From assembly GCA_913046215.1 (NCBI GenBank), contig CAJWRJ010000001.1:72897-136896 (forward strand): a stretch of DNA of 64,000 nt, read 5' to 3'. Positions 32,810-46,756 of this stretch are shown here, piece by piece. The notes under the pieces are model-generated. The model was given only the letters and a program-made list of their open reading frames with translations, had not been told where the DNA came from and made no database searches. Every line of letters starts with the position of its first letter. The first letter of the stretch is position 1. Position numbers and translations under genes: made by a program. Source of the DNA: an uncultured Legionellales bacterium (GTDB lineage: Bacteria > Pseudomonadota > Gammaproteobacteria > Eutrophobiales > Eutrophobiaceae).

Positions 32810-32901
32810 GGAGAGGTGGCCGAGTGGCTGAAGGCGCTCCCCTGCTAAGGGAGTATACGGTTTATCCCGTATCGAGGGTTCGAATCCCTCCCTCTCCGCC
32901 A
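32810..32901 (+). tRNA. tRNA-Ser (anticodon GCT)
   Basis: GGAGAGGTGGCCGAGTGGCTGAAGGCGCTCCCCTGCTAAGGGAG...long variable arm...GGTTCGAATCCCTCCCTCTCCGCCA. Cloverleaf with a 7-bp acceptor stem, GCT anticodon and encoded CCA. Confidence 0.9.
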
Positions 32902-33034
32902 AAAAACAGATTCTAAAATCGAGATTCAGCCTCAATTGTCAAGGTTCATTTCAGGACAGCCAATATTTTACACTTAAAAAACTGTCCTAATTATAGGTAT
33001 AATTGACTCATATACTACGAAAGTGCCAATAATA

Positions 33035-34390
33035 ATGAAAAAAAAATATAAAAACTTTCATATTTTTGTCGGGCTGTTACTTGTGTTAAAAGTATCAATC
33101 ACCACAGCTGAAACATTACCTCAGTATGGCAAAGATATGCATCTAGGAGTACAAACTTGCTCAGGATCAACATGTCATGGTGCCGTTCAACCATGGCAGA
33201 ATTCATCTGTGCTTCAGAATGAAGCAATTACTTGGAAAAAATATGATCATCATGCTCGTGCTTTTAAGACATTAGCAAGCGAGCGTTCAAAACGTATTGC
33301 AAAAAATTTGGGAATAGAAAACCCGCAGAAAGATAATGTGTGTTTAAACTGTCATGCAAATAATGTTCCCAAAGAAAAACGTGCTAAAAATTTCATGATA
33401 AGTGATGGTGTTACCTGCGAAGCATGCCATGGAGGTGCAGAAAAATGGCTAGGCATTCATGTTTCCGGAGTGGGTGGACGTGAAGAAAATATTAAAGCTG
33501 GGCAGTACCCAACCGAGGAGCCTTTAGCTAGAGCAAAACTTTGTTTAAGTTGTCATTATGGTACTGAAAATAAATTTCTTACACATAGAATAATGGGTGC
33601 AGGCCATCCAAGGTTAGCTTTTGAACTTGACACATATACTGCGACACAACCAGCACATTACAAAGTTGATGCAGATTATAGACAAAGGAAAAGATGGAGC
33701 AATGGTGTTAGAACATGGGCAATCGGACAGGCAGTTGCTGTCGAAGAAACCTTAAATGCGTTGACAGATAAAAATAGAAATCGCCAAGGTATTTTTCCTG
33801 AACTTGTATTCTTCGATTGCCATGCTTGTCACCACCCTATGTCTAATCTTCGCTGGGAGCGAAGAGATAGTGTAGGTCTTGATCCTGGAATTCCAAAACT
33901 AAATGACGCAAACATTGTAATGTTGCGAGTAATTTCTTCTGTAGTTGATCCAGAACTTGGTAAGCGTATAGAAGAAGAGACTAAACGGTTACATCAAGCA
34001 TCAATGAAAGGCGGTGATGCAACGTTTGAAGCCGCGGATGTTTTGAGATCAACCTTAAAAGGCGTTGTTCAAAAGATTAGTAAACATACTTTTAATCAAA
34101 AAGAAATGGAAAAAATACTTAATGCGCTCTTAGAGTTTGGATTTCATGGTGAATATGTTAATTACATAGCAGCTGAACAGGCTACTTACTCAATTGGTAG
34201 CGTCATCGAGGCTATGAAAGATAGTGGAATGATAAGAGGGAAGGCGATTGAAAAAGTTAAAAAAGCAATGGACATGGCCTACGAAGCGGTTAAATCTGAT
34301 GAAAAGTATCGTCCTTCAGAATTTGTCAAAGCAATTGAAAATATAAAAAAATCCGTAAGTCCGGAATTACAGCTTTCAAAAAAACACTAG
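33035..34390 (+). CDS. secreted pentaheme c-type cytochrome (4 CXXCH + 1 CX4CH) with a non-heme alpha-helical C-terminal domain
   Basis: Signal peptide MKKKYKNFHIFVGLLLVLKVSITTAETL. Heme sites CSGSTCH, CLNCH, CEACH, CLSCH and CHACH fall in the first ~270 aa. The remaining ~180 aa are heme-free and predicted helical. Confidence 0.8.
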   Translation: MKKKYKNFHIFVGLLLVLKVSITTAETLPQYGKDMHLGVQTCSGSTCHGAVQPWQNSSVLQNEAITWKKYDHHARAFKTLASERSKRIAKNLGIENPQKDNVCLNCHANNVPKEKRAKNFMISDGVTCEACHGGAEKWLGIHVSGVGGREENIKAGQYPTEEPLARAKLCLSCHYGTENKFLTHRIMGAGHPRLAFELDTYTATQPAHYKVDADYRQRKRWSNGVRTWAIGQAVAVEETLNALTDKNRNRQGIFPELVFFDCHACHHPMSNLRWERRDSVGLDPGIPKLNDANIVMLRVISSVVDPELGKRIEEETKRLHQASMKGGDATFEAADVLRSTLKGVVQKISKHTFNQKEMEKILNALLEFGFHGEYVNYIAAEQATYSIGSVIEAMKDSGMIRGKAIEKVKKAMDMAYEAVKSDEKYRPSEFVKAIENIKKSVSPELQLSKKH

Positions 34391-34516
34391 GTGATTAGCC
34401 AAAATCTGGACAAAATTACGACCTAAATTATCATCAAGTGTTTTATAGAATAATATTATTAGATAGTGTATTTTTTCAGTATGAGATTAGAAAAATCACC
34501 GAATGTAAGTCAATAT

Positions 34517-36349
34517 ATGGTATTTCCAAAAAAGACACTTTTTTTACTCGTAGGCATTATTTTTTTCAGTGTCTCAAGTGCTAATGAACCTATTATAGAT
34601 CAAGACCTAAAATTACCCGATAATTATCAATCTCAGTGGGAGAAAGTTGCTGGTGATTCTGAACCCGTAATGCCAGGCGGGGGAGACGGATTAGATCCAC
34701 ATCTTAAAATATTACAACAATCGAAATATCCATCAGCTGCACTTTGTGGAAGATGTCACCAGCGTATTTTTACTGAGTGGGCTTCATCAAACCATGCTTA
34801 TGCATCAATTTCGCCAATGTTTCACAAGTTTGAGCAAGCGGTCAATGCATTGACGTCTGGCACGATGGGTACTTTTTGCGTGCGTTGTCATCAACAAGTC
34901 GGTACTCAAGTCGGAGAAACTCGCGAAGCACCTCTTTGGGAACGTTCACAAGTTGCTAGAGAAGGTATCACATGCATTACTTGCCATAGAGTTAATCAAG
35001 CGTTTGGAAAAGTAAATGGCGAGCGTCACATACAGCCAGGGACTATTTACGAACCAGTATATAATACTGGCGATGCGCCAGGTGTTGCAGAGGTGATATC
35101 TGAACGTGATTATTATAAAGTTGCAACGAATCCTGACGAGGAAGGCTTCCCGATACACGGCGGCGCTCAAGTTTTCGAGACAATTGGAGAGTCTGAGTTT
35201 TGTGTTTCATGCCATCAGGTCGCAGTTAATTTAGGAATTAAGTTAGAAGTTGTATGGGAACAGTACCGTGATAGTCCTGCGCATGCGAAGGGCGTGACTT
35301 GTCAAGAGTGTCATATGGGCAAGATTCCGGGAGAAGCAAAAGGCTATGATACTGGACCTGTTGCTATAGTTAATGGACGCGTTGTTGGAGATCCAAATCG
35401 TAAACATTCAAATCATGCATTTTACGGACCCGGTTATCCAATTGCTCACCCTGGTTTATTTCCATTTAATGTGCGTTCATTGAAATGGTCTGTAAAAGAG
35501 TGGCTGACATTTAATTATCGAAAGCCATGGGGTAAGCCTGATTGGGAGGATAAGCTCGAACAAGGATTGGTGGAAAAACCAGAATTTCCTGAAATATGGT
35601 CGACTAGACAGGCACGAGAAGAAGCTAGATACATAATTGGCCAGAACAATAAATTGCTCGAGAATAAAAAGCTAGATCGTTTAGCTGTAATGGAAAATGG
35701 AAGCCGTATTGATGGACCATTTTTTGATAATGGTAAACCAGAAATGGGAAAAGATTTAAAATTTCGTTATCGAATTACAAATGTTGATGAGGGACACAAT
35801 CTTCCATCTGGTTCTTTAGGCGCACAACCAGAAATCTGGCTCAATGTCGTACTCACAGATCCTGATGGCGAACGTGTATTTGAATCAGGATATGTTGACA
35901 AGTACGGAGATATGGTTGATTTACATTCGTTAGAGTTGGCCGAGGGCACAATAGAACACGATGATCAACTTTTTAATCTACAAACAAAATTTTTGACAAC
36001 CAATATTAAAGGTACTGATCGCGAGATGTATCTGCCTGTTAATTTCGATATAGATCAACTCCCATTTTTAAGACCTGCCCCACAACCAACGACTGTCATG
36101 AATCATCCACCTTTCGTGAGAATGGAGGGTCGTTCAATACCACCTTTAGCTTACCGTGATGCTAAATATAAAGTCTCCGGTGATTTAATAAAAAAATCTG
36201 GCACATATAAATTACAAGTAAGAATGCGAAGTCGTGCGGAACCAATTTATTTTATGAAATTTGTTGGTGCAACACTTGATATGGAAAAAAGAATTAATGA
36301 CTGGATGATTGATATTCATCCATACTCAGTCGATTTTGATATCAATTAA
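34517..36349 (+). CDS. secreted pentaheme c-type cytochrome with a ~300-aa non-heme C-terminal domain
   Basis: Likely start MVFPKKTLFLLVGIIFFSVSSANEP (signal peptide). Heme sites CGRCH, CVRCH, CITCH, CVSCH and CQECH. The track ORF begins at 34466. Confidence 0.8.
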   Translation: MVFPKKTLFLLVGIIFFSVSSANEPIIDQDLKLPDNYQSQWEKVAGDSEPVMPGGGDGLDPHLKILQQSKYPSAALCGRCHQRIFTEWASSNHAYASISPMFHKFEQAVNALTSGTMGTFCVRCHQQVGTQVGETREAPLWERSQVAREGITCITCHRVNQAFGKVNGERHIQPGTIYEPVYNTGDAPGVAEVISERDYYKVATNPDEEGFPIHGGAQVFETIGESEFCVSCHQVAVNLGIKLEVVWEQYRDSPAHAKGVTCQECHMGKIPGEAKGYDTGPVAIVNGRVVGDPNRKHSNHAFYGPGYPIAHPGLFPFNVRSLKWSVKEWLTFNYRKPWGKPDWEDKLEQGLVEKPEFPEIWSTRQAREEARYIIGQNNKLLENKKLDRLAVMENGSRIDGPFFDNGKPEMGKDLKFRYRITNVDEGHNLPSGSLGAQPEIWLNVVLTDPDGERVFESGYVDKYGDMVDLHSLELAEGTIEHDDQLFNLQTKFLTTNIKGTDREMYLPVNFDIDQLPFLRPAPQPTTVMNHPPFVRMEGRSIPPLAYRDAKYKVSGDLIKKSGTYKLQVRMRSRAEPIYFMKFVGATLDMEKRINDWMIDIHPYSVDFDIN

Positions 36350-36359
36350 AAAAAAGATC

Positions 36360-38825
36360 ATGCCTCTAAAACATAATAAATTAAATAAGATTTATAGTTT
36401 ATTTTTATATAGTGCACTAGTTTTATTTTCATACCAGCAGCCATTATATGCGGATGTGTTGACTTCAGTTAATGATTGGGCGAAGGCTTGGGCATCACAA
36501 AATGTTGATCAATATTTTGAAAGTTATGCTGAAGATTTTGCGCCCTCTCAAGAACATACTAAAAAAACTTGGAAATCTCAAAGAGAGAGTAGATTGTTGT
36601 CTCCAAGTTTTATCAAGGTGACATTATCTAATATAGAAATCAGCCAGCACTCTGAGGATTTTGCTGATGTGCTTTTTACACAAAACTATAAGTCAGATAG
36701 CTATTCTGATGAAGTGACAAAACAATTGAGAATGCAAAAAATTGATGACAAATGGCTGATTATAAAGGAAAAAACTATAAAAATAAGACAGAAAACAGAA
36801 CTCCAATTAGTGAAAAAAAATGAGGTTTTAGAGGACACCACAACAGTCCAAATCGAACATGATGTTAAAGAGGCCTTGAATAGTTGGTCAAAGGTTTGGT
36901 CATCTCAGGATATTGATGGTTATTTTGCAGCTTACGCTGAAGATTTTTCGCCATCCAACATATCAAACAAAAAAAAATGGAAAAAACAACGTCATAATAG
37001 AGTCATTAGTCCAAGCTATATAAAGGTAACTCTTACTGATGTGAAGATTACACAACACAGTAAAAATAATGTCGACGTAGTATTTAATCAAAATTATGAA
37101 TCTAGTAATCACAGCGATGATGTTAGAAAACTTATTTCCATGCAGAGGGAAAATGAGCGATGGTTGATCACCAAGGAGAGAGTAAAAAAAGTTTTGATTG
37201 ATATTAGTGAAGACCTATCTTCACAAGACAAAACTAATCTTATAGCAGAATTAGATTCTCACAGTGATAGTTCAATAAATTATGCAGATGTTGTTCCTGT
37301 TGAAGATGATTTGAAAGATGAAAGTATTTTACGAAGAAGAGATGTACCCGCCGATACTGTTTTAGAGAAGAGAAGTGGTAGTCCTAAACATAAAAGTCAC
37401 CAAGCGCCACCCGAAATGGATCCTCATGTTCGTCCATCTGAATTTGAGCCAGATCTTTTTGGAAGTGATCCAGTATATCCAGATAATGTTTATGATGTTG
37501 CTGAGCAAATAAAAATTTATGGTGGAAAAACTCCATTTGATGAACCACGTCCAATACTAGAATTTGGTTATCCTCTTTATTCCGAGGGTGCTTTGGGTAG
37601 AACCTATGATGTTATTGGAGAGAAAAACTTGTTAAGACCACAGCTACTTGTATACGGTGATTTTAGAAGTGCTCTTGCTTTTAACGACAATGGCAACAAG
37701 GAGATTGGTCAGATCGCTGCAAGGTTGAATCTTGATGTTGATTTAAAATTAACCGCAACAGAACGTATTCATCTTTTTCTTCGTCCTATTGATAAAAATA
37801 ATAATTTTCTTCGTCACGAGTTTTTTGGCGATGATCATAATGACTTCGATTTTGTGTTAGATGCAAATCTTGAGACTATTTATTTTGAGGGTGATATAGG
37901 GGCCATTCAATCGGGATTAACAAATGAATGGGCAACTTATGATTTGCCCTTTGCTATTGGTTTCATGCCTTTGCTTTTTCAGAATGGAATATGGCTTGAT
38001 GACGCATTTGTAGGTGCTGCATTTGCTATTCCAGCGATGAATTCTCCAAAGTACGATATATCAAATATGGATATTAGCTTTTTCACTGGTTTTGACAAAG
38101 TAACAACTGCAGCATTAAAAAATGGAGCTGGTCAAATAGAGGATAGTAAGGGAAATGTTTTTGGTGTAAATGCATTCGTGGAAACTCGACAAGGATACTT
38201 AGAAGCCGGTTATGGTTTCATTGATGATAAACGTAATGGAAATATATTAAGTGGTTTTGATCATCATAGTTTGACTGCAGCATGGACAAAGAGATATAGA
38301 GGGAAACTTTCAAACTCAATACGTGGTATCTGGACATTTGGACAAACTCCGAATGGAGGCAATACCCAGACTGCTGATGGGTTTGTCATTCTCATAGAGA
38401 ACTCACTTATAACTAGCAAGCCATCAACTTTAATTCCATATGGCAATTTTTACGTTGGTGTGGATAGACCTCAACCACTTGTACGTGGCAATGATGGGCT
38501 TCTTAAAAATACAGGAATAGTCTTTGAAACCGACGGTTTAACAGGATTTCCAAAACTTGATTCCTCTGCTCAAGATGTATTTGGTGGCGCAATTGGTATT
38601 CAATACCTCTTTGATTTATCTAGACAGGCTGTATTTGAAGTTGCAACTGTTCAGCCATTTGGCGGTCAGTCTGCGACGATTGTTGGCGATCAGTACGGAT
38701 TGAGCGCACGATATCAGCATAATTTAAATGATCGTTGGCTTATAAGGACGGACGCAATGATTGGAATTCTTAATAATGCAGAGAATATTTCTGGTATTCG
38801 TCTCGAATTGCGCCGTAAATTCTAA
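36360..38825 (+). CDS. outer-membrane beta-barrel protein with two tandem N-terminal NTF2/SnoaL-like domains (putative porin partner of the cytochromes)
   Basis: Signal peptide MPLKHNKLNKIYSLFLYSALVLFSYQQPLYA. Two ~110-aa repeats (VNDWAKAWASQNVDQYFESYAEDFAPS...WLIIKEK and LNSWSKVWSSQDIDGYFAAYAEDFSPS...WLITKER). The ~540-aa C-terminal region shows alternating amphipathic strands and a terminal ...GIRLELRRKF, the OMP C-terminal Phe signature. Confidence 0.6.
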   Translation: MPLKHNKLNKIYSLFLYSALVLFSYQQPLYADVLTSVNDWAKAWASQNVDQYFESYAEDFAPSQEHTKKTWKSQRESRLLSPSFIKVTLSNIEISQHSEDFADVLFTQNYKSDSYSDEVTKQLRMQKIDDKWLIIKEKTIKIRQKTELQLVKKNEVLEDTTTVQIEHDVKEALNSWSKVWSSQDIDGYFAAYAEDFSPSNISNKKKWKKQRHNRVISPSYIKVTLTDVKITQHSKNNVDVVFNQNYESSNHSDDVRKLISMQRENERWLITKERVKKVLIDISEDLSSQDKTNLIAELDSHSDSSINYADVVPVEDDLKDESILRRRDVPADTVLEKRSGSPKHKSHQAPPEMDPHVRPSEFEPDLFGSDPVYPDNVYDVAEQIKIYGGKTPFDEPRPILEFGYPLYSEGALGRTYDVIGEKNLLRPQLLVYGDFRSALAFNDNGNKEIGQIAARLNLDVDLKLTATERIHLFLRPIDKNNNFLRHEFFGDDHNDFDFVLDANLETIYFEGDIGAIQSGLTNEWATYDLPFAIGFMPLLFQNGIWLDDAFVGAAFAIPAMNSPKYDISNMDISFFTGFDKVTTAALKNGAGQIEDSKGNVFGVNAFVETRQGYLEAGYGFIDDKRNGNILSGFDHHSLTAAWTKRYRGKLSNSIRGIWTFGQTPNGGNTQTADGFVILIENSLITSKPSTLIPYGNFYVGVDRPQPLVRGNDGLLKNTGIVFETDGLTGFPKLDSSAQDVFGGAIGIQYLFDLSRQAVFEVATVQPFGGQSATIVGDQYGLSARYQHNLNDRWLIRTDAMIGILNNAENISGIRLELRRKF

Positions 38826-38834
38826 ATAATTATA

Positions 38835-40532
38835 TTAAATTTTTTCTTTTGGCATCATCAAGTCTTCGCGATGAAAGCCATGACATTCAGTACAGGTGCT
38901 TTTTACTTTTGTTGTCGTTGTTTCTCCACCATGGCATTCCTGACAAGTTGTAATTGACGGGAGCAGTATATCGGTAGCTTTTTCACTTTTTGTTGCATCA
39001 TGACATGTTGTACATTCTCTATCTTTGTGCGGTTTATGATTAAAGAAACTTTTTGGTAGCCACTTTGTTGGTACATGAACAGTTGCTATATCCCATCTAC
39101 CCGTTTTTTTATTTTCTACAATTTGGTGACATTCTCCACATAGTCCACGACCATATCTTCCTTGTACAATTTCTTCGGCTTTTGCTTCAGCCCATTCTAG
39201 AGCCGCCTTCTTTTTTTCTTTAGTATCAGGTTTATCGCCTATTAGTTTACGAAAAGTTGATGTTTCATCATTTAATGTATTTGACTCAATAAAATTGCCT
39301 CGAAGTGCAAACTCGGCATATGTTCCTATAATATATTCTTTTGCTAAAGAAATATTTCCATGCGGCATCTCTCTATTAGGTGCTTGAGGTTCAAATTTTA
39401 AGTCGTGGCAACTGGCGCAGTGTTTTTCAAAACTTACAGGGAGTAAAGCAACACCTCCAGTTTCAGGCTCATGGCAGAATCCACACTGAAGAACCGTTCG
39501 TGTTCCATTTGGATGTCTAACTCCATTTTCTTTTAGATGCTTATTATGTGGAAATTTCAAATTCGATCGATCTATTGGTTTTGGTTTTTTTTGATCAATC
39601 GTCACTCTCTCAAAAGTTAAAGGCTGATGAGTTTTTATGAGTGTAGGACGAAATTGAGGATGTTCGTTAAAGTTTGAGACATTTTTTAATTTAGAATTCT
39701 CAGCAACATCTAGGATTTCACTATGGCAGTTGCTACAAAATCTTTCAGTGGTGATAAGCAAGCCCTGATCGCCATTATGTTCTTTATGACAATCCTGACA
39801 CTGTTGTCCATCTAAAGAGGCGCTTGGAAATATAGACGGGTCCGCATGGTGCCCGGCATCATCATGACAATCAAAACATACTTTATTTCCTACTTGTTGA
39901 AATGCATCTGTATGGCATGTTTCGCAGCGATCGCCAAAATGTGCATGCACACTAGAATGAGGGCCTGACAACCAAATTTTATCAGCGGTTGCTAAAATTC
40001 CATTTTTTTTTGTTTCACTTACTGTTTCATTTTTTTTATATTTTATCGTATATGCGGTAAGTGGCCCCAATATTCCAAGCGTGATAATTCCAATAAATAA
40101 AACCCACGCCCATCCTCTAGTACTGAGTCCAAGCGAATCAAACTGTGTATTTGATCGTTTTTTAAATGCTTCTAATTCATCACCTAGTGGACGCGAGTAC
40201 TCAATAGTTAATACAGCATCATATCCATCTTCATTATCTAAGACCTCGATATCATATGGACCAAGATGAATTTTATCTCCCGTTTTTACGGTTGATTTAG
40301 TAAGGATTTGATCATTAACCTGAAAATCACTATCTCCTTGACCCTCTAAGTATAGTTCTCCCGAACGCTCTGTTATTTCAAGTTGAATTAATAGAATTCT
40401 TGGATCAGTTAAGTGAACCTCGCATTCTGAACCACGTCCAAAGCGAATTGCAGGAGATTCTATATCTTCGTCACGCTGAGCATATCCCCCAGAACGAGTT
40501 TTTTTAAGAAGATGTCTAATAAGTACTTTCAT
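38835..40532 (-). CDS. FHA-domain / single-TM / periplasmic decaheme c-type cytochrome fusion
   Basis: 565 aa. N-terminal FHA-like fold (IRFGRGSECEVHLTDPRILLIQLEITERSGELYLEGQGDSDFQVNDQIL...GDKIHLGPYDIEV), TM helix (WAWVLFIGIITLGILGPLTAY), then ten CXXCH sites: CETCH, CFDCH, CQDCH, CSNCH, CGFCH, CASCH, CGECH, CTTCH, CQECH, CTECH. Confidence 0.75.
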   Translation of the reverse strand: MKVLIRHLLKKTRSGGYAQRDEDIESPAIRFGRGSECEVHLTDPRILLIQLEITERSGELYLEGQGDSDFQVNDQILTKSTVKTGDKIHLGPYDIEVLDNEDGYDAVLTIEYSRPLGDELEAFKKRSNTQFDSLGLSTRGWAWVLFIGIITLGILGPLTAYTIKYKKNETVSETKKNGILATADKIWLSGPHSSVHAHFGDRCETCHTDAFQQVGNKVCFDCHDDAGHHADPSIFPSASLDGQQCQDCHKEHNGDQGLLITTERFCSNCHSEILDVAENSKLKNVSNFNEHPQFRPTLIKTHQPLTFERVTIDQKKPKPIDRSNLKFPHNKHLKENGVRHPNGTRTVLQCGFCHEPETGGVALLPVSFEKHCASCHDLKFEPQAPNREMPHGNISLAKEYIIGTYAEFALRGNFIESNTLNDETSTFRKLIGDKPDTKEKKKAALEWAEAKAEEIVQGRYGRGLCGECHQIVENKKTGRWDIATVHVPTKWLPKSFFNHKPHKDRECTTCHDATKSEKATDILLPSITTCQECHGGETTTTKVKSTCTECHGFHREDLMMPKEKI

Positions 40533-40535
40533 TTC

Positions 40536-41378
40536 TTACCAATAAAAAAATACAGCTAGTATGTGAGAGAAAAGTGCAGCCAATAAACCTATCGATAGTG
40601 GAATATGAAAAAATAACCACACTCTTAGAATTACTTTTATTTGAATATCGCGTCTCGCTCGTCTGAGTAATTTTGTTTTTTTTGCAAGTAAAGCGATTAC
40701 CTTTGATATGTTTTGATCGCGAAGACCCATATCAGCAAATTTTTCTTCAATTAAATTCCTAGCATTTAGGGTTGGACAGTCAATATTTTTTGGTGATAAT
40801 TTTTCTATTATATTTCCACCTATACTAGTCTCAGTGGCTGCTTTAAGTAGAGCCGTATTTATTTCTTCAGGCAGTTGCTGACCAGCTTTAAGAATATCTT
40901 GATCTAGTTCTGAAATTTGCCCCATCATTTCATCTAGAGACAGTCCAGCTCGATTTTTTGTCATTAGCTTTGGATAATATGCATAAATAAATACCCCAAC
41001 AACACCACTTAACACAGTTAACAGCATAAGGATGTAAGCAATGGAATGGATATTCCATCCAATCTGAAAACCACTATGTAGAGTTGCGGTAACTACAAGA
41101 GCGAGTCCAAGATAAATATGAGCAGACAACCAAACCTTTAATCCTGTTGCACTAACAGCATATTGCCTTTTTCTAACTCCAAACCAAGTTAACCACAAAA
41201 CTAAAACAGCTGAAATTATCCCCAATGTGTATCCAAGCCATGATCCGCCATTTGGTTCACCCAGGGGGTTATGCCATATATAAAGAACGATTGAGATAAA
41301 AGCCAATGCGACGGCATACCAAAGAAACTTGAGACCTTTATAGATAAAAAAAGAATCATGGACATTACGTGAACTCAT
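40536..41378 (-). CDS. polytopic inner-membrane protein with conserved intramembrane His (putative b-heme / quinol-interacting subunit)
   Basis: Start MSSRNVHD, placed by a TGATATG stop/start junction with the upstream gene; 280 aa. Five TM helices with His in helices 3-5 (LSAHIYLGL, WNIHSIAY, FFHIPLSIGLLAALFSHIL). A ~100-aa soluble loop lies between TM4 and TM5. The track ORF is extended to 41579. Confidence 0.55.
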   Translation of the reverse strand: MSSRNVHDSFFIYKGLKFLWYAVALAFISIVLYIWHNPLGEPNGGSWLGYTLGIISAVLVLWLTWFGVRKRQYAVSATGLKVWLSAHIYLGLALVVTATLHSGFQIGWNIHSIAYILMLLTVLSGVVGVFIYAYYPKLMTKNRAGLSLDEMMGQISELDQDILKAGQQLPEEINTALLKAATETSIGGNIIEKLSPKNIDCPTLNARNLIEEKFADMGLRDQNISKVIALLAKKTKLLRRARRDIQIKVILRVWLFFHIPLSIGLLAALFSHILAVFFYW

Positions 41379-41379
41379 A

Positions 41380-43788
41380 TCACTCGCTCCCGTCTCTAAT
41401 AAAGTCCATGAATTCGTCTGGTTTGACACGTATCGCCGCCCCAGTTGGGCAAGCACGCACACAAGCAGCACCACCTTTAATATCCTTACACATATCGCAC
41501 TTAACTGCTGTTTTGCGAGCATCCTCCGGTGCTCTTTCTCGGTAACCATAGTCTTCGCCTGGTCCAGGACCTTTTCCAAAAAGAAGCCAAGAAAACAAAT
41601 TTGGTTTTTCTGGTGGTTCAGGCGCCATTTGAATTACCCCATATGGGCAATTTTTTTGGCAGTTACCACAACCAATACAGTCATTTGTAATGTAAACTTC
41701 ACCGTCAGGGTTTCTTTTAATAGCATCGGGAGGACAGTCCGTCATACAGTGCGGATGTTCGCAATGTCGGCAACTTGTTGGAACATGCACGTTTGCAAAT
41801 GTTGGTCCTGCCTCACGATTTAATCTCGAAATACCCCTGTGTGTCTCGGCACAGGCTTTTTCACAATTATCACATCCAACACATAACGATTCGTTTATTA
41901 AAAGCACATCAGTTGCTTCACCTATACCTTCTCCCATTAAAAATTCTACAATACTTCCAGCCTCAGGTTGCTCTATCATTTTTTCTGTTGAAACAATACG
42001 TTCACCATATTTCTCTTCGATTTCTTTTTGAAGAGAAGGATTTTCATCAACTAATTTGCGGAAGATTTCACCATCTATCTTAATTGTTTCACAATCAACC
42101 GCGGCTTTAATTGTTGCTGTTCGATTTAAATCTGACATTAATGCCATTTCCCCAACATAATTACCTGCAGCGACGTAAGCAAGGGTTACCTCCTTACCAC
42201 CTATTCGTTTCGATACCATCACTGAGCCTTTACTTATGAGATAAAGCGCATCACCCTCATCACCCTCATTAAATATAACTTTACCTTTACGAAAGGTTTC
42301 TATTGAAGCTGAGTCTGCCAATTTTTGTATTGCATTAATGTCGAGGGCGCTTGCGATATAAGTTTGAATTTGCCTTACGATAGCCTCTTTATCCATAGAA
42401 TTTCGTAAAGAACGGACATCCTCTCTTAATTTAAGCATCGTACGACGAGGCGTTTCAATTAATATCGTATCATCTGCATTAGATAAAATTGTTGCCGAAC
42501 GTCTACGACCCGATATTAATCCCACTTCTCCAAAAAATGCACCTTGCTCCAAGACAACAAACTTAGATGGATCATCCTCGCTAGTTTGTATTTTGACTGA
42601 GCCCCTGAATATTGTGTAGACACTATTCGTATAATCTCCCCGTTCAAAAATTACTGTTCCATTAGGCGGCGCAGTTACGGTTGATTCAACTAACATTTCT
42701 CTTTCCATTAATGGGTTTAGTTCTTCAAATATAGGAAGTCTTGCCCTCACTTCTTTTAAAAAAGAATCATTATCAAAATCCTTTATATCTTTTAAAGTTT
42801 TAGTAATTATTGGTTCATCAGCTGGATCTAATTCCGTGTTACCGTTGATATATTCAATGACTTCATAACCCTGATTTATTGCATGTTTAATTAACGGATA
42901 TCCACCTAAGGAGCCAACTATATATAGGCCTTTAACATTTGATTCGTAGGTTTTGCTTACTTCTGGCAACGCGCTGCGTGCATCAGATGGAAAAGTAACT
43001 CCACAGGCTTCAACAAACTTTCGTGGCGGTGCTGCACCAAGTCTAGCAATCACTCTGTCACACTCTATTGTTACATCGCCATCAGGCGTATCAAAAGTTA
43101 ATGTTCCTTCCGAACATTCCTTTGAACTACTATTGTATAGGGGAGTAATACGTCCTCTATCAATTTCAGCTAAAATAGCCGCTTCATTTGCTTCTTTTGC
43201 ACGTGAAAATTCATTACCACGATTAGCTATATAAACTGTGTTATGCGTACACAAACCAAGTGCATTTTCTATTGCAGCATCACCCGCACCGATAACAATG
43301 ATAGTTTCATGCTCATATTCATCTGGGTCATCTAATTGATATTGAATATGCGTGACATCATCTATTCCAGGTATTCGTAAAGTATTCAGATTACCTTGAA
43401 GACCTATTGCAAGAACGATTGATTCTACTTTAATAATATCTTTATTTTTTAGTGTAAGCTCAAACTTTCCTTTTGTTCCTGAAACAGATTTAACTTCAGA
43501 ATTGTATAGAATATTAACTTGGTGATTTTTTAATGCTAGATTCCATCTATCGAGAACATCTTCTCTGCTTCCCATTTTAAAATCGATATCTGAACGCAAG
43601 GGAAGCACGTCCGGAGTTGCCATAACATGCTTACCTTTTTGAAACTTGTAAATTGTGTCCGATACATGATCTGCTTTTTCAATTAATACATGTCGTAAAC
43701 CTAATACAGATGCATGCGCTGCTGCACTAAGACCAGCTGGTCCAGAACCTATTATTGCAACTTGAAAAATTGATTCTTTACTCGCCAT
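41380..43788 (-). CDS. FAD-dependent pyridine-nucleotide oxidoreductase fused to two cyclic-nucleotide-binding domains and a poly-[4Fe-4S] ferredoxin domain
   Basis: 802 aa. Rossmann fold VAIIGSGPAGLSAAAHA plus a second dinucleotide site IIVIGAGDAAIENA. Two cNMP-binding segments (FFGEVGLISGRRRSATI; YVGEMALMSDLNRTATIKA). C-terminal Cys clusters CVGCDNCEKAC, CRHCEHPHCMTDCP, CIGCGNCQKNCP and CDMCKDIKGGAACVRACP. Confidence 0.8.
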   Translation of the reverse strand: MASKESIFQVAIIGSGPAGLSAAAHASVLGLRHVLIEKADHVSDTIYKFQKGKHVMATPDVLPLRSDIDFKMGSREDVLDRWNLALKNHQVNILYNSEVKSVSGTKGKFELTLKNKDIIKVESIVLAIGLQGNLNTLRIPGIDDVTHIQYQLDDPDEYEHETIIVIGAGDAAIENALGLCTHNTVYIANRGNEFSRAKEANEAAILAEIDRGRITPLYNSSSKECSEGTLTFDTPDGDVTIECDRVIARLGAAPPRKFVEACGVTFPSDARSALPEVSKTYESNVKGLYIVGSLGGYPLIKHAINQGYEVIEYINGNTELDPADEPIITKTLKDIKDFDNDSFLKEVRARLPIFEELNPLMEREMLVESTVTAPPNGTVIFERGDYTNSVYTIFRGSVKIQTSEDDPSKFVVLEQGAFFGEVGLISGRRRSATILSNADDTILIETPRRTMLKLREDVRSLRNSMDKEAIVRQIQTYIASALDINAIQKLADSASIETFRKGKVIFNEGDEGDALYLISKGSVMVSKRIGGKEVTLAYVAAGNYVGEMALMSDLNRTATIKAAVDCETIKIDGEIFRKLVDENPSLQKEIEEKYGERIVSTEKMIEQPEAGSIVEFLMGEGIGEATDVLLINESLCVGCDNCEKACAETHRGISRLNREAGPTFANVHVPTSCRHCEHPHCMTDCPPDAIKRNPDGEVYITNDCIGCGNCQKNCPYGVIQMAPEPPEKPNLFSWLLFGKGPGPGEDYGYRERAPEDARKTAVKCDMCKDIKGGAACVRACPTGAAIRVKPDEFMDFIRDGSE

Positions 43789-44090: not shown

Positions 44091-44167
44091 GCGCCCGTAG
44101 CTCAGTTGGATAGAGTACCTGGCTACGAACTAGGGGGTCGGAGGTTCGAATCCTTCCGGGCGCGCCA
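44091..44167 (+). tRNA. tRNA-Arg (anticodon ACG)
   Basis: GCGCCCGTAGCTCAGTTGGATAGAGTACCTGGCTACGAACTAGGGGGTCGGAGGTTCGAATCCTTCCGGGCGCGCCA. 77 nt canonical cloverleaf, close to E. coli argV. Confidence 0.92.
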
Positions 44168-44197: not shown

Positions 44198-44926
44198 TTA
44201 CTGTCGCCTTTTAAGCCACATCCAAATACCGGTAGCGGAAATAACAAGCATTAGAATTGCAACCAGATCCATAAAGTAGGTACCCCATTTTCCTACAACA
44301 CGGCCGCTATGCATATCAAGCAATACTCTTTCAATTGTCAGACCTTTGCCGCGGTACTCGTTAAAAATAGCAATTCTTAGTTTCTCGGATATATTATTTG
44401 ATGTGTCCGACCAATTTGCAGAAAGCAGATCATGTTCATTCCAGTTCAAAATATCCAAATTGACGCGATAATAACCATGTGCCGATTTAATTATTACATT
44501 ATCCTTATCATCAACACCAATTGCTTTCATCCCTGCGGGAACACCCTCGGCACCTGATAAAGATTCTAAAAGTTTACCGTCTTCAGTAAGCACCATTAAT
44601 TTTCCATCATAACCAACGACAAATGTGTTATTTATATAAACAACACCAATTAGGTTTTCTACATTAGTAATAATTTCTATGTCATTGAAATAAACACGTT
44701 GACCAAGTTGTGTTATCCAGTTGTTATTGTAGGAAGGGTATGCGATAGGTTCGGAGTTTGGGCTAATTTGATAAAGATCAAGCAACCATTCCATCTTTAT
44801 AAATGTTGTATTTAACTTGAACTTTTCACTGTGGTTTAATGCGATACCGCTAATAGCAAGAAAAATAACAAATATTACGATGAATATTCCTATCTTTTTG
44901 TGCCACCTTTGTATAAAAAGAAACAT
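44198..44926 (-). CDS. PepSY-associated TM-helix family membrane protein (two TM helices flanking a periplasmic domain)
   Basis: 242 aa. N-terminal QRWHKKIGIFIVIFVIFLAISGIALNH and C-terminal LDMHSGRVVGKWGTYFMDLVAILMLVISATGIWMW are typical PepSY_TM helix signatures with conserved His. Confidence 0.6.
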   Translation of the reverse strand: MFLFIQRWHKKIGIFIVIFVIFLAISGIALNHSEKFKLNTTFIKMEWLLDLYQISPNSEPIAYPSYNNNWITQLGQRVYFNDIEIITNVENLIGVVYINNTFVVGYDGKLMVLTEDGKLLESLSGAEGVPAGMKAIGVDDKDNVIIKSAHGYYRVNLDILNWNEHDLLSANWSDTSNNISEKLRIAIFNEYRGKGLTIERVLLDMHSGRVVGKWGTYFMDLVAILMLVISATGIWMWLKRRQ

Positions 44927-44956
44927 ACACCTATTCTAGGATGCAATTATTTATTT

Positions 44957-45484
44957 TCAATTTTTATTATCGATATATTGATCTAGAAATAGAGCTAGAC
45001 GTGCTAATTTTATCAAAGCATCAACTGACAATGTTGCTCCACTAATACCATCAATTTTTCTATCTAATTTTGTATCAGCCTTAAGAGAGGCATCTGCAAA
45101 TTGTTCTGTAAAAAAAGGATATCTTACTTCCCATCCTCTTGATTCTCTAAAAACTAGTACTTTCACATCTAGAATCTTTCCTTTTGAAGTAACATATCCA
45201 GTCGTAATTGGCTTGTCTCTGCCAATTCTCTCTAAAATCCAGGCTTTTTTAGACCCATCATCCCAATATCGAAGTCGTAATGGCTTGAATTCATCTCCCA
45301 GTATTTTTTTTATTTCTTTCTTTAGCTCTTTTTTAAGCCATAGTTTTTTTGGATTTGGAGGGTTATTGTTAAACACGTCCGATAAAAATTTTTCAGGTTC
45401 TAAGTAAGTTCCCTTTGCATAAGAGTGTAAACTCCAACTCTGAGTTAGTAGAAATAAAAAGATATATAAAGTCAGTTTTGTCAT
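44957..45484 (-). CDS. secreted FMN-binding domain protein (predicted ApbE flavinylation target)
   Basis: 175 aa with a signal peptide. The C-terminal KIDGISGATLSVDAL matches the D-x-[ST]-G-A-T-x-[ST] motif of NqrC/RnfG-type FMN_bind domains, whose Thr (here T151) is covalently flavinylated. Confidence 0.65.
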   Translation of the reverse strand: MTKLTLYIFLFLLTQSWSLHSYAKGTYLEPEKFLSDVFNNNPPNPKKLWLKKELKKEIKKILGDEFKPLRLRYWDDGSKKAWILERIGRDKPITTGYVTSKGKILDVKVLVFRESRGWEVRYPFFTEQFADASLKADTKLDRKIDGISGATLSVDALIKLARLALFLDQYIDNKN

Positions 45485-45589
45485 ATTTAGTTATAAGCCT
45501 ACAAAAAAAATAGGGCACTTACAAAAGTGCCCTAAATATATCACCACGAGGATATTACCGTTGGTACGATAATTCTTAAAATTTATTAT

Positions 45590-46756
45590 TTAGAACGAAT
45601 ACCCTACACCAAGATAGAAGTTATCTGTGGTTGTATTATCATCAACATCTTTAACCGATTCAAAGGTACCTTTGAAAACTACCTTTGGATGTGGCCAGAT
45701 ATTAAAACCTGTTGAGGTACGTTCTTCTTCGTTTCTAGAGCCTGTAAAACCTCTGTCTATGTCTTCGTATCTGATGTAGACACCTACGTCGGTATTACTA
45801 TTACCCACAGTCCAACGATAGGCTGGCTCAACATACCAACCTTCTGAGTCTTTACCATCAGCTGATAAGTTCTTATTCATATCCCATCCCGCATAAAGAG
45901 CGCGGAAACCTAAACCCGAGCTATGTTTATAATCGACATGAGTTGTAAATAAGTGAGCATCATTTCCTGATACTAGTTCACCACCGATGTTACTTTGGAA
46001 TTGGTATGAAGCAGATAATTCAAGACCTGGAACACCGGTATAACGGAGTCGACCAGTTGCTGCCGGATATTCTGCGTTTGCTTCTGCTACCTTTTGTCTA
46101 CCAGATCGTATGTTGCTACTCGTTTCTAACCCTGAGTGAAGTACGATGTCATAGTTAACACCTGGTGCAACTTCCCCATTGAAACCAAAACCTGCTTCCC
46201 ACCAAGTTGAAGGAATGATTCTTTTTTCTACTTCATTTCGCTCAACTCCATAGAATGTATTAGGTTCATGTGTAACATTCAACATACCAACAGGTAGAAT
46301 ATCAAGACCGGCACGGAAATGATGATTTTCACTAAGGTCAATTTCAATCCATGCTTGTTCTAATTCAACCTCACCTTCTTTACCCTCTCCAGCTAATGAA
46401 TGCTCTAATTCCCATTCTGAGAAGAAGTGGATGTTATCGGTGTAGTCATGACCTATGTATAGGACATAACGGTGGAAGTCGACTTGATCTGTTCCATCAC
46501 CAAATTTGTAATGAAGTTCACCATAGCCGCCCATCTGAGTTTTATCAGCCCAATTACCAGTTGCACCACCAGCACCAGATTCTACAGCTTCTGCGGTAGC
46601 ATCAAGTTGCTCCTGGAGCTCTTCAATAACTTTTTGCTGTTCTTGTATAGTTTGCCACATTTCTTCTGCTGTCGGTGCTGCTTTAGCGGCAGAGACAGTA
46701 AAAAACATGAATAGAATCATGTAGATAACTCTATTAATGTGATTATTCGTATTCAT
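45590..46756 (-). CDS. outer-membrane beta-barrel porin-like protein
   Basis: 388 aa. Signal peptide (an alternative start is MILFMFFTVSAAKA at 46720), an N-terminal coiled-coil (WQTIQEQQKVIEELQEQLDA), alternating amphipathic strands, and a C-terminal ...NFYLGVGYSF. Confidence 0.6.
   Translation of the reverse strand: MNTNNHINRVIYMILFMFFTVSAAKAAPTAEEMWQTIQEQQKVIEELQEQLDATAEAVESGAGGATGNWADKTQMGGYGELHYKFGDGTDQVDFHRYVLYIGHDYTDNIHFFSEWELEHSLAGEGKEGEVELEQAWIEIDLSENHHFRAGLDILPVGMLNVTHEPNTFYGVERNEVEKRIIPSTWWEAGFGFNGEVAPGVNYDIVLHSGLETSSNIRSGRQKVAEANAEYPAATGRLRYTGVPGLELSASYQFQSNIGGELVSGNDAHLFTTHVDYKHSSGLGFRALYAGWDMNKNLSADGKDSEGWYVEPAYRWTVGNSNTDVGVYIRYEDIDRGFTGSRNEEERTSTGFNIWPHPKVVFKGTFESVKDVDDNTTTDNFYLGVGYSF

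Follow-up and report, generated by a model that had tools for sequence, protein, structure and literature searches.

Two tandem NTF2-like domains on the predicted porin of a PCC4 gene cluster: a candidate peptidoglycan tether in an uncultured marine Legionellales bacterium

The window analyzed here is a stretch of 64,000 nucleotides of contig CAJWRJ010000001.1 (positions 72,897 to 136,896), from assembly GCA_913046215.1 of an uncultured Legionellales bacterium. On its forward strand, a single unbroken open reading frame at 36360 to 38825 encodes a secreted protein of 821 amino acids, in which two tandem NTF2-like domains precede a predicted outer-membrane beta-barrel. Judged from sequence, the barrel is the porin of PCC4, a described but hypothetical porin-cytochrome candidate. 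The best reading we can offer, to which we give about an even chance, is that the protein is a variant of the PCC4 porin tethered to peptidoglycan by two N-terminal NTF2 domains of the Csd6/Pgp2/Bd1075 type. What is new is the tandem peptidoglycan-type NTF2 module on a barrel, found in a small uncultured marine clade.

The reading frame ends in a stop codon at 38823 to 38825. Its start is the ATG at 36360, which public gene calls use as well and at whose methionine the N-termini of the ~23 orthologue clusters line up; a start at the other candidate, a TTG at 36309, runs into the upstream gene's stop codon. The N-terminus reads MPLKHNKLNKIYSLFLYSALVLFSYQQPLYA, with D as the next residue, and by its sequence is a Sec-type signal peptide, with a basic n-region, a hydrophobic core, and cleavage at LYA/D; it contains no lipobox. 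An earlier reading of the window made from the letters alone (the sequence-only reading) had preferred this start and had proposed an architecture of signal peptide, two NTF2-like domains, and barrel. The public call and the orthologue N-termini agree with that start, the first 31 residues do read as a signal peptide, and the architecture is borne out by Pfam family PF24125 and by the AlphaFold2 model. The parts of the protein are as follows, with the evidence for each in brackets.

36360 to 36452, forward strand: signal peptide, residues 1-31, cleavage after LYA (sequence, public gene call, orthologue alignment).
36453 to 36794, forward strand: NTF2-like domain 1, residues 32-145, PF24125; pocket residues W44, Y52, F60, R75, Y110, K121, and E137 (Pfam, BLASTP, AlphaFold2, alignment).
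36855 to 37193, forward strand: NTF2-like domain 2, residues 166-278, PF24125; pocket residues W180, Y188, F196, R211, Y246, K257, and E273 (Pfam, BLASTP, AlphaFold2, alignment).
37194 to 37355, forward strand: acidic disordered linker, residues 279-332, 54 amino acids (model confidence ~30, composition, alignment).
37356 to 37631, forward strand: N-terminal extension of the PCC4 porin family, residues 333-424 (alignment).
37632 to 38825, forward strand: predicted 18-stranded outer-membrane beta-barrel, residues 425-821, with a C-terminal Phe (AlphaFold2, Foldseek, periodicity).

The two NTF2-like domains are clear repeats of each other. BLASTP aligns them with 56 of 111 positions identical (E 1e-44), which confirms the tandem repeat seen earlier and puts its identity at 50% rather than the ~30% first estimated. 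Pfam PF24125, 'Cds6_C NTF2-like', covers both (105.6 bits over two stretches, threshold 27), and matches to DUF4440 and SnoaL_3 are weak or marginal. The Pfam name seems to be a misspelling of Csd6. In the AlphaFold2 model, built on a 50-sequence alignment, each repeat consists of three helices followed by four long strands, with a predicted local distance difference test score (pLDDT) of ~55-90 per 10-residue block; this order agrees with the NTF2 alpha+beta fold, in which a curved sheet comes after three helices. The motif that had been noticed at the opening of each repeat is indeed present, but W-x-x-A-W...Y..Y...F.P is the signature of PF24125 as a family and is not special to this protein. 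No additional NTF2 copies were found elsewhere in the window.

To what might such domains bind? We ran a profile of 26 NTF2 domains (both repeats, those of orthologues, and those of further relatives) against all PDB sequences at E < 0.01, and the only matches were Bd1075 (7O21, 3e-14), Csd6 (4XZZ, 2.8e-6), and Pgp2 (6XJ6/6XJ7, 4e-6). The NTF2 pocket of Pgp2 binds peptidoglycan: fragments were mapped there by nuclear magnetic resonance titration, the K307A substitution abolished sacculus pull-down, and function requires Y233, F242, K257, K307, and E324 (PMC8038945). The NTF2 domain of Bd1075 serves to target that enzyme within the periplasm, Y274 forms the base of the pocket, and in the crystal the pocket was occupied by a peptide loop from a neighboring molecule (PMC8938487).

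We transferred the residue numbering through alignments, with seven Pgp2 residues and W303 of Bd1075 as checks on the offsets. In the order given above, the five Pgp2 residues correspond to Y52, F60, R75, K121, and E137 of repeat 1 and to Y188, F196, R211, K257, and E273 of repeat 2, and Bd1075 Y274 aligns with Y110 and Y246. Across the 26-sequence alignment, the F60/F196 column is conserved at 90% or above; the other four columns that correspond to the Pgp2 residues are invariant, as is the Y110/Y246 column. In other words, going by the alignment, both repeats keep all five of the pocket residues functionally tested in Pgp2. In character, the conserved pocket combines aromatic with charged residues (Y, R, K, E, Q, S, D) and is not hydrophobic. 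No YkuD-type LD-carboxypeptidase domain matches the 821-residue protein in Pfam at E ≤ 0.1, and on domain content it shares only the accessory NTF2 domain with the LD-carboxypeptidases Csd6 and Pgp2.

The family to which the repeats belong is large. An exhaustive search with repeat 1 yielded 5085 representative clusters at E ≤ 1e-3, often with two to five copies per protein, and the partners found in 85 of the closest NTF2 relatives include TPR repeats (25), BamE (12), and AAA_22 (9). One relative (P0256) combines BamE with two NTF2 domains, and several others (among P0242-P0244) combine TPR repeats with one to five. In many uncharacterised envelope proteins, PF24125 stands in tandem, in two to five copies, behind BamE domains and TPR arrays. 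This recurrence on periplasmic and outer-membrane-associated proteins, beyond the wall enzymes, fits a general role in binding an envelope ligand, most simply peptidoglycan. Identity among the fused orthologues is 42-55% over the NTF2 region, as against 80-90% over the barrel; the NTF2 region diverges faster than the barrel yet retains its pocket, a pattern that fits an accessory ligand-binding module.

Behind the second repeat lies the linker (residues 279-332), with 15 D/E against 5 K/R and predicted to be disordered (pLDDT ~30), which alignment finds only in the fused form and not in standalone homologues. It is followed by the extension (residues 333-424), reading ILRRRDVP..TVLEKRSGSPKH..HQAPPEMDP...IYGGK..., which is conserved throughout the porin family and modeled with low confidence. 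Residues 425-821 are all-beta in the AlphaFold2 model, with 18 long strands and a pLDDT mostly of 80-94 per 10-residue block that dips to the low 70s around residues 490-500 and 680-690. The family has a conserved loop at residues 703-739. Foldseek places 18-stranded outer-membrane barrels at the top of its PDB matches (Campylobacter jejuni MOMP, 5ldv, E 2.5e-10; OccK/OprD; AlgE), and the Veillonella attachment porin OmpM1 (8BYT) is also among the matches. Hydrophobicity along the strands alternates at ~2 standard deviations above shuffles, and the protein ends in ...LELRRKF. The C-terminal part is thus confirmed, as a prediction, to be an outer-membrane barrel. Both the barrel and its terminal LELRRKF had been recognized before, but it measures ~400 amino acids and not ~540, because the linker and the extension precede it.

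Identities like MtrB or PCC3 were rejected on strand number, on haem counts, and because no gene for an extracellular cytochrome is present. The predicted strands number 18 rather than the ~26 of MtrB/PioB-type porins, and Pfam MtrB_PioB does not match. Likeness to OprD/OccK or AlgE is structural only, as no Pfam or NCBIfam model matches residues 333-821. The other members of the gene cluster around the barrel are listed here.

33023 to 34390, forward strand: cytA, a cytochrome c554-like protein with four CXXCH and one CX4CH (Pfam, motif count).
34466 to 36349, forward strand: cytB, a pentahaem c-type cytochrome with five CXXCH and a C-terminal beta-sandwich (Pfam, motifs, tblastn).
38835 to 40532, reverse strand: decahaem cytochrome with a cytoplasmic N-terminal FHA domain and one transmembrane helix (Pfam, motifs).
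40536 to 41378, reverse strand: PCC4 inner-membrane protein, 280 amino acids, with five transmembrane helices, SGVVG, and two WX3HX13H motifs, a putative di-haem b protein (gene call, motifs).
41380 to 43788, reverse strand: cytoplasmic FAD/NAD(P) oxidoreductase with two cyclic-nucleotide (cNMP)-binding domains and a 4Fe-4S domain (PF13247), 802 amino acids (Pfam).

PCC4 was described as a porin accompanied by three periplasmic multihaem cytochromes with 4, 5, and 10 haem sites, and by an inner-membrane protein with five transmembrane helices, SGXXG on the fourth, and WX3HX13H on the third and fifth (He et al. 2017, Front Microbiol 8:1584, PMC5566968). In its subgroup II, whose hosts are marine Zeta-, Gamma-, and Alphaproteobacteria and Planctomycetes, the membrane-protein gene is immediately preceded by an iron-sulfur (Fe-S; pfam13247) gene. 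Carriers of PCC4 include Fe(II)-oxidising Zetaproteobacteria, and the role of PCC4 as an extracellular electron conduit is the hypothesis of that same paper (PMC5566968). In the window, the porin is the predicted 18-strand barrel, and the three cytochromes have 4 (plus one CX4CH), 5, and 10 CXXCH motifs. The 280-residue membrane protein has five hydrophobic segments, W150LSAH154...H168, SGVVG at 191, and W321LFFH325...H339. PF13247 is found in the 802-residue protein, whose gene (41380 to 43788, reverse strand) precedes that of the membrane protein. By described features and motifs, then, the surrounding cluster matches the whole published definition. The sequence-only reading had called the fusion 'not a described porin-cytochrome component'. 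This holds for the NTF2 addition, since a literature search found no description of an NTF2 pair on a PCC4-type barrel, but the barrel itself is the PCC4 porin, normally a protein of ~510-530 amino acids that stands alone.

The barrel has hundreds of homologues, 44-81% identical, that come mostly from metagenome-assembled genomes (MAGs) of Alpha- and Gammaproteobacteria and are standalone proteins of ~500-580 amino acids without a Pfam domain. Only ~23 barrel clusters, at 63% identity or more, carry PF24125. In a scan of one genome per species, relatives of the barrel were found in at least 519 genomes, and the fused form in only three, all MAGs labeled 'Legionellales bacterium' and marine. 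At the level of loci, the fusion is confined to the window's own (L001) and L005-L009, which are 'Legionellales' MAGs or marine contigs; related barrel loci include some from Phycisphaeraceae, and one PCC4 carrier, Ferruginivarius sediminum WD2A32 (L083), is in culture. In the alignment, the mature start of the standalone porins, A/QVLRR..PP.TV.EER.GSP.H..HQAPPEMDP, falls at residue ~333 of the fused proteins. This shared segment indicates that the NTF2 pair and linker went in precisely at the junction of signal peptide and mature N-terminus. Three PCC4 loci (L010, L015, and L037) sit in MAGs labeled Mesoflavibacter, Verrucomicrobia, and Klebsiella pneumoniae; these labels look like binning or labeling errors, because the adjoining proteins resemble those of Proteobacteria.

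The most constant partner of the barrel is cytB. We searched 80 related loci with the proteins of the window by tblastn; 64 could be evaluated and 16 were incomplete. In 61 of the 64, the gene immediately before that of the barrel, in the same orientation, encodes a cytB homologue; the number rises to 63 when we include two fused loci where the NTF2 insert adds distance, and one locus has the reverse order. Thirteen of the 16 incomplete loci begin inside cytB. The sequence-only reading had linked this gene to the upstream cytochromes and had named co-occurrence as a check; the link holds, in that cytB adjoins the barrel gene in 63 of 64 evaluable loci. The cytA, FAD/Fe-S, decahaem cytochrome, and membrane-protein genes are found in many related loci, and in alphaproteobacterial loci all cluster genes are co-directional. 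Both upstream cytochromes had been taken for pentahaem proteins; this is right for cytB, with five CXXCH, but cytA has four CXXCH and one CX4CH. The latter, CSGSTCH at residue 46 of cytA, is a possible fifth haem site of unusual spacing.

With five haems in 627 amino acids (~125 residues per haem), cytB looks, from its sequence, more like an uncharacterised enzyme family than like an electron wire. Its homologues are 59-94% identical across Alphaproteobacteria, Gammaproteobacteria, and Planctomycetes, a conservation greater than that of the barrel, and it has many invariant His and polar residues, for example GHNLPSGSLGAQPE. More than 3000 protein clusters match it, none of them functionally named, and among solved structures it has only weak sequence matches to multihaem cytochromes such as 5ZE8.

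We propose the following mechanism. A marine gammaproteobacterial 'Legionellales' lineage has gained the NTF2 pair, on a flexible acidic linker, at the periplasmic N-terminus of its porin. A barrel with an even number of strands (18) has both termini in the periplasm, which would place both NTF2 domains there, on an acidic tether of ~55 residues. They would bind peptidoglycan non-covalently and so staple the barrel, plus anything docked on it, to the sacculus. OmpA, OmpM, and the LysM domain of intimin fix a barrel to the wall in a comparable way. The barrel itself would work together with cytB. An 18-strand barrel is probably too narrow, by the model, to sheathe a multihaem domain as the 26-strand MtrB does, and this strand number, together with the ~125 residues per haem and the unusual conservation of cytB, makes a sheathed wire like MtrAB unlikely. 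It is more likely that a small redox substrate from outside the cell would enter through the barrel and so reach cytB, docked at the periplasmic mouth; alternatively, some small portion of cytB may extend outward through the barrel. The electron route would then lead by way of cytA and the decahaem cytochrome to the putative di-haem-b membrane protein and on to the cytoplasmic FAD/Fe-S protein, or it would run the opposite way.

Several observations weigh against a peptidoglycan tether on a PCC4 conduit. The relatives with peptidoglycan data are only ~20-30% identical to the repeats (judged by eye on alignments), so that peptidoglycan binding is extrapolated; the pocket residues are common to the whole of PF24125; and W303, specific to Bd1075, is not conserved in the alignment of the repeats. 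Among the partners of the 85 closest relatives, TPR repeats are the most frequent, and YkuD-type peptidoglycan enzymes are absent from the 25 commonest of 71 families. The ligand of PF24125 could thus be something other than peptidoglycan, and for Csd6 pseudaminic acid has been put forward as a ligand too (PMC8038945). Hundreds of PCC4 porins lack the NTF2 domain, from which it follows that the addition is not needed for core function. As for PCC4 itself, our literature search found no experimental study, a 2026 metagenomic paper merely citing it. Finally, a fold search with cytB, on a weak model (pLDDT 63), matched only beta-sandwiches, to its C-terminal domain, and no multihaem enzyme.

Among other explanations, the one that survives best would make the barrel a plain substrate-specific diffusion channel, like OprD/OccK, feeding cytB as a periplasmic pentahaem enzyme, with PCC4 being no extracellular electron conduit at all. 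We regard this as possible though on the doubtful side. The 18 strands and the best structural matches, which are substrate channels, speak for it, as do the enzyme-like features of cytB: ~125 amino acids per haem, 59-94% conservation across classes, many invariant polar residues, and a weak similarity to a pentahaem c552 of the NrfA family. However, inspection of the haem motifs identified none of catalytic type (CXXCK or similar), the cluster carries a full trans-envelope path of decahaem cytochrome, di-haem-b protein, and FAD/Fe-S protein, and PCC4 is present in Fe(II)-oxidising Zetaproteobacteria (PMC5566968). Even if the barrel were such a channel, the NTF2 pair could still be its wall anchor.

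A second alternative concerns the NTF2 pair alone, which might be a docking platform for proteins, positioning the periplasmic cytochromes (cytA, cytB, or the membrane-anchored decahaem protein) under the barrel. The cytochrome genes are genetically linked to that of the barrel, TPR repeats, modules for protein interaction, are frequent fusion partners of the closest NTF2 relatives, and the Bd1075 pocket did hold a peptide loop of its neighbor in the crystal. Nevertheless, hundreds of genomes pair these cytochromes with porins that have no NTF2 domain, the conserved residues form the generic pocket of the family and not surfaces specific to the lineage, and the NTF2 regions evolve much faster than either the cytochromes or the barrel. 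We therefore consider docking unlikely. Such docking had been one suggestion of the sequence-only reading; the link to the upstream cytochrome genes is real, but positive support for their docking on the NTF2 pair was not found.

The least probable explanation, which we would be surprised to see upheld, is that the ligand of the NTF2 cones is a small molecule, either hydrophobic or redox-active (quinone, flavin, or lipid), acting as shuttle or cofactor of the conduit: many members of the NTF2/SnoaL superfamily are small-molecule binders, SnoaL_3 and DUF4440 match weakly, and an FMN_bind/PepSY pair is encoded nearby, but the family is PF24125, whose only solved relatives are peptidoglycan-binding domains, the conserved pocket is aromatic plus charged, not hydrophobic, and other PCC4 clusters lack the NTF2 domain. 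The quinone, flavin, or lipid binding proposed earlier thus finds no support in domains of the Csd6/Pgp2/Bd1075 type that keep the peptidoglycan-pocket residues of Pgp2 in both repeats. We know of no outer-membrane electron conduit that is cofactor-loaded in this sense, and the evidence disfavors, to a like degree, a porin-cytochrome conduit whose tandem cones are sites for a diffusible flavin-like or quinone-like mediator.

Other features of the cluster deserve mention. The putative electron path holds two input domains of signalling type, FHA (phospho-threonine) and cNMP-binding (cyclic nucleotide). For the membrane protein, the list of open reading frames gave a version of 347 amino acids with a TTG start (40536 to 41579, reverse strand), which overlaps the upstream gene by 200 nucleotides; we prefer the 280-residue version, starting at the ATG at 41378, because it fits the public gene calls and the five-helix architecture of the PCC4 membrane protein. 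The 10.8-kb cluster as a whole (33023 to 43788) lies downstream of recA-alaS-lysC-csrA and between tRNA-Ser GCT (32810 to 32901) and tRNA-Arg ACG (44091 to 44167). Its proteins are closest to those of marine Alphaproteobacteria MAGs (loci L010-L012), at 66-71% identity for the barrel, 76-80% for cytB, and 74-76% for the FAD/Fe-S protein. The tRNA location and the alphaproteobacterial similarity suggest an old horizontal acquisition at a tRNA locus. The GC content is 0.377 in the cluster and 0.397 and 0.338 in its flanks, and a search for att-like flanking direct repeats of at least 12 nucleotides between the two tRNA genes found none.

Beyond the second tRNA gene, the reverse strand at 44198 to 46756 encodes a PepSY_TM protein (242 amino acids), an FMN_bind protein (175 amino acids), and a porin-like protein of 388 amino acids ending in ...GYSF. 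These three may form a second envelope redox module. They are kept together in the closest relative (L007) and were not seen in L005 and L006, whose available flank there encodes a different large protein.

PCC4 is widespread, with the barrel in at least 519 species genomes and the partner cytochrome in more than 3000 protein clusters, and it is known only from the comparative genomics of 2017. To that description our analysis adds the prediction of an 18-strand barrel, the near-constant 5-haem cytochrome upstream of it, the enzyme-like character of cytB, and the NTF2 module in one lineage. The fusion is restricted to a small clade and by itself leaves the understanding of PCC4 unchanged; it provides a means of pulling down the complex. 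Should the NTF2 pair prove to bind the wall, it would join the outer membrane to peptidoglycan by a non-covalent link of a new kind, and the large PF24125 family, including its BamE and TPR fusions, would be suggested as a general wall-binding module.

Set beside known systems, the cluster is most like PCC4 as described by He et al. (2017). It shares the porin, the 4-, 5-, and 10-haem cytochromes, the five-helix protein with SGXXG and WX3HX13H, the PF13247 gene upstream of it, and carriers among marine Alphaproteobacteria, Gammaproteobacteria, and Planctomycetes. It departs from that description in the extra N-terminal module of ~300 amino acids on the porin (two NTF2 domains and linker) and in the fusion of FAD, cNMP, and Fe-S domains into one 802-residue protein. 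Like MtrAB, MtoAB, and PioAB, it has the gene of an outer-membrane barrel adjoining that of a periplasmic multihaem cytochrome. However, the 26-strand barrel of MtrB encloses a decahaem wire of ~33 amino acids per haem, whereas the barrel here has 18 strands and a 5-haem partner of 627 amino acids. OprD/OccK, AlgE, and C. jejuni MOMP are the best structural matches (E 1e-10 to 1e-8, TM-score ~0.6 per target), but the barrel is only 7-13% identical to them in sequence, belongs to none of their Pfam families, and has a different genetic context.

The NTF2 domains resemble those of Pgp2 (6XJ6), Csd6 (4XZZ), and Bd1075 (7O21) in belonging to the same Pfam family, in keeping the pocket residues, and in being periplasmic. 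Unlike in those enzymes, there is no YkuD domain, and the NTF2 domain is duplicated and precedes a barrel rather than following an enzyme; W303 of Bd1075 is also absent. In overall plan, the protein is like OmpA, OmpM1 (8BYT), and the LysM-bearing intimin/invasin proteins, each combining a barrel, a flexible linker, and a periplasmic domain of peptidoglycan-binding type. It differs from all of them in that the domain is of NTF2 type, and not OmpA_C, SLH, or LysM, and in having an 18-strand barrel devoted to a cytochrome cluster.

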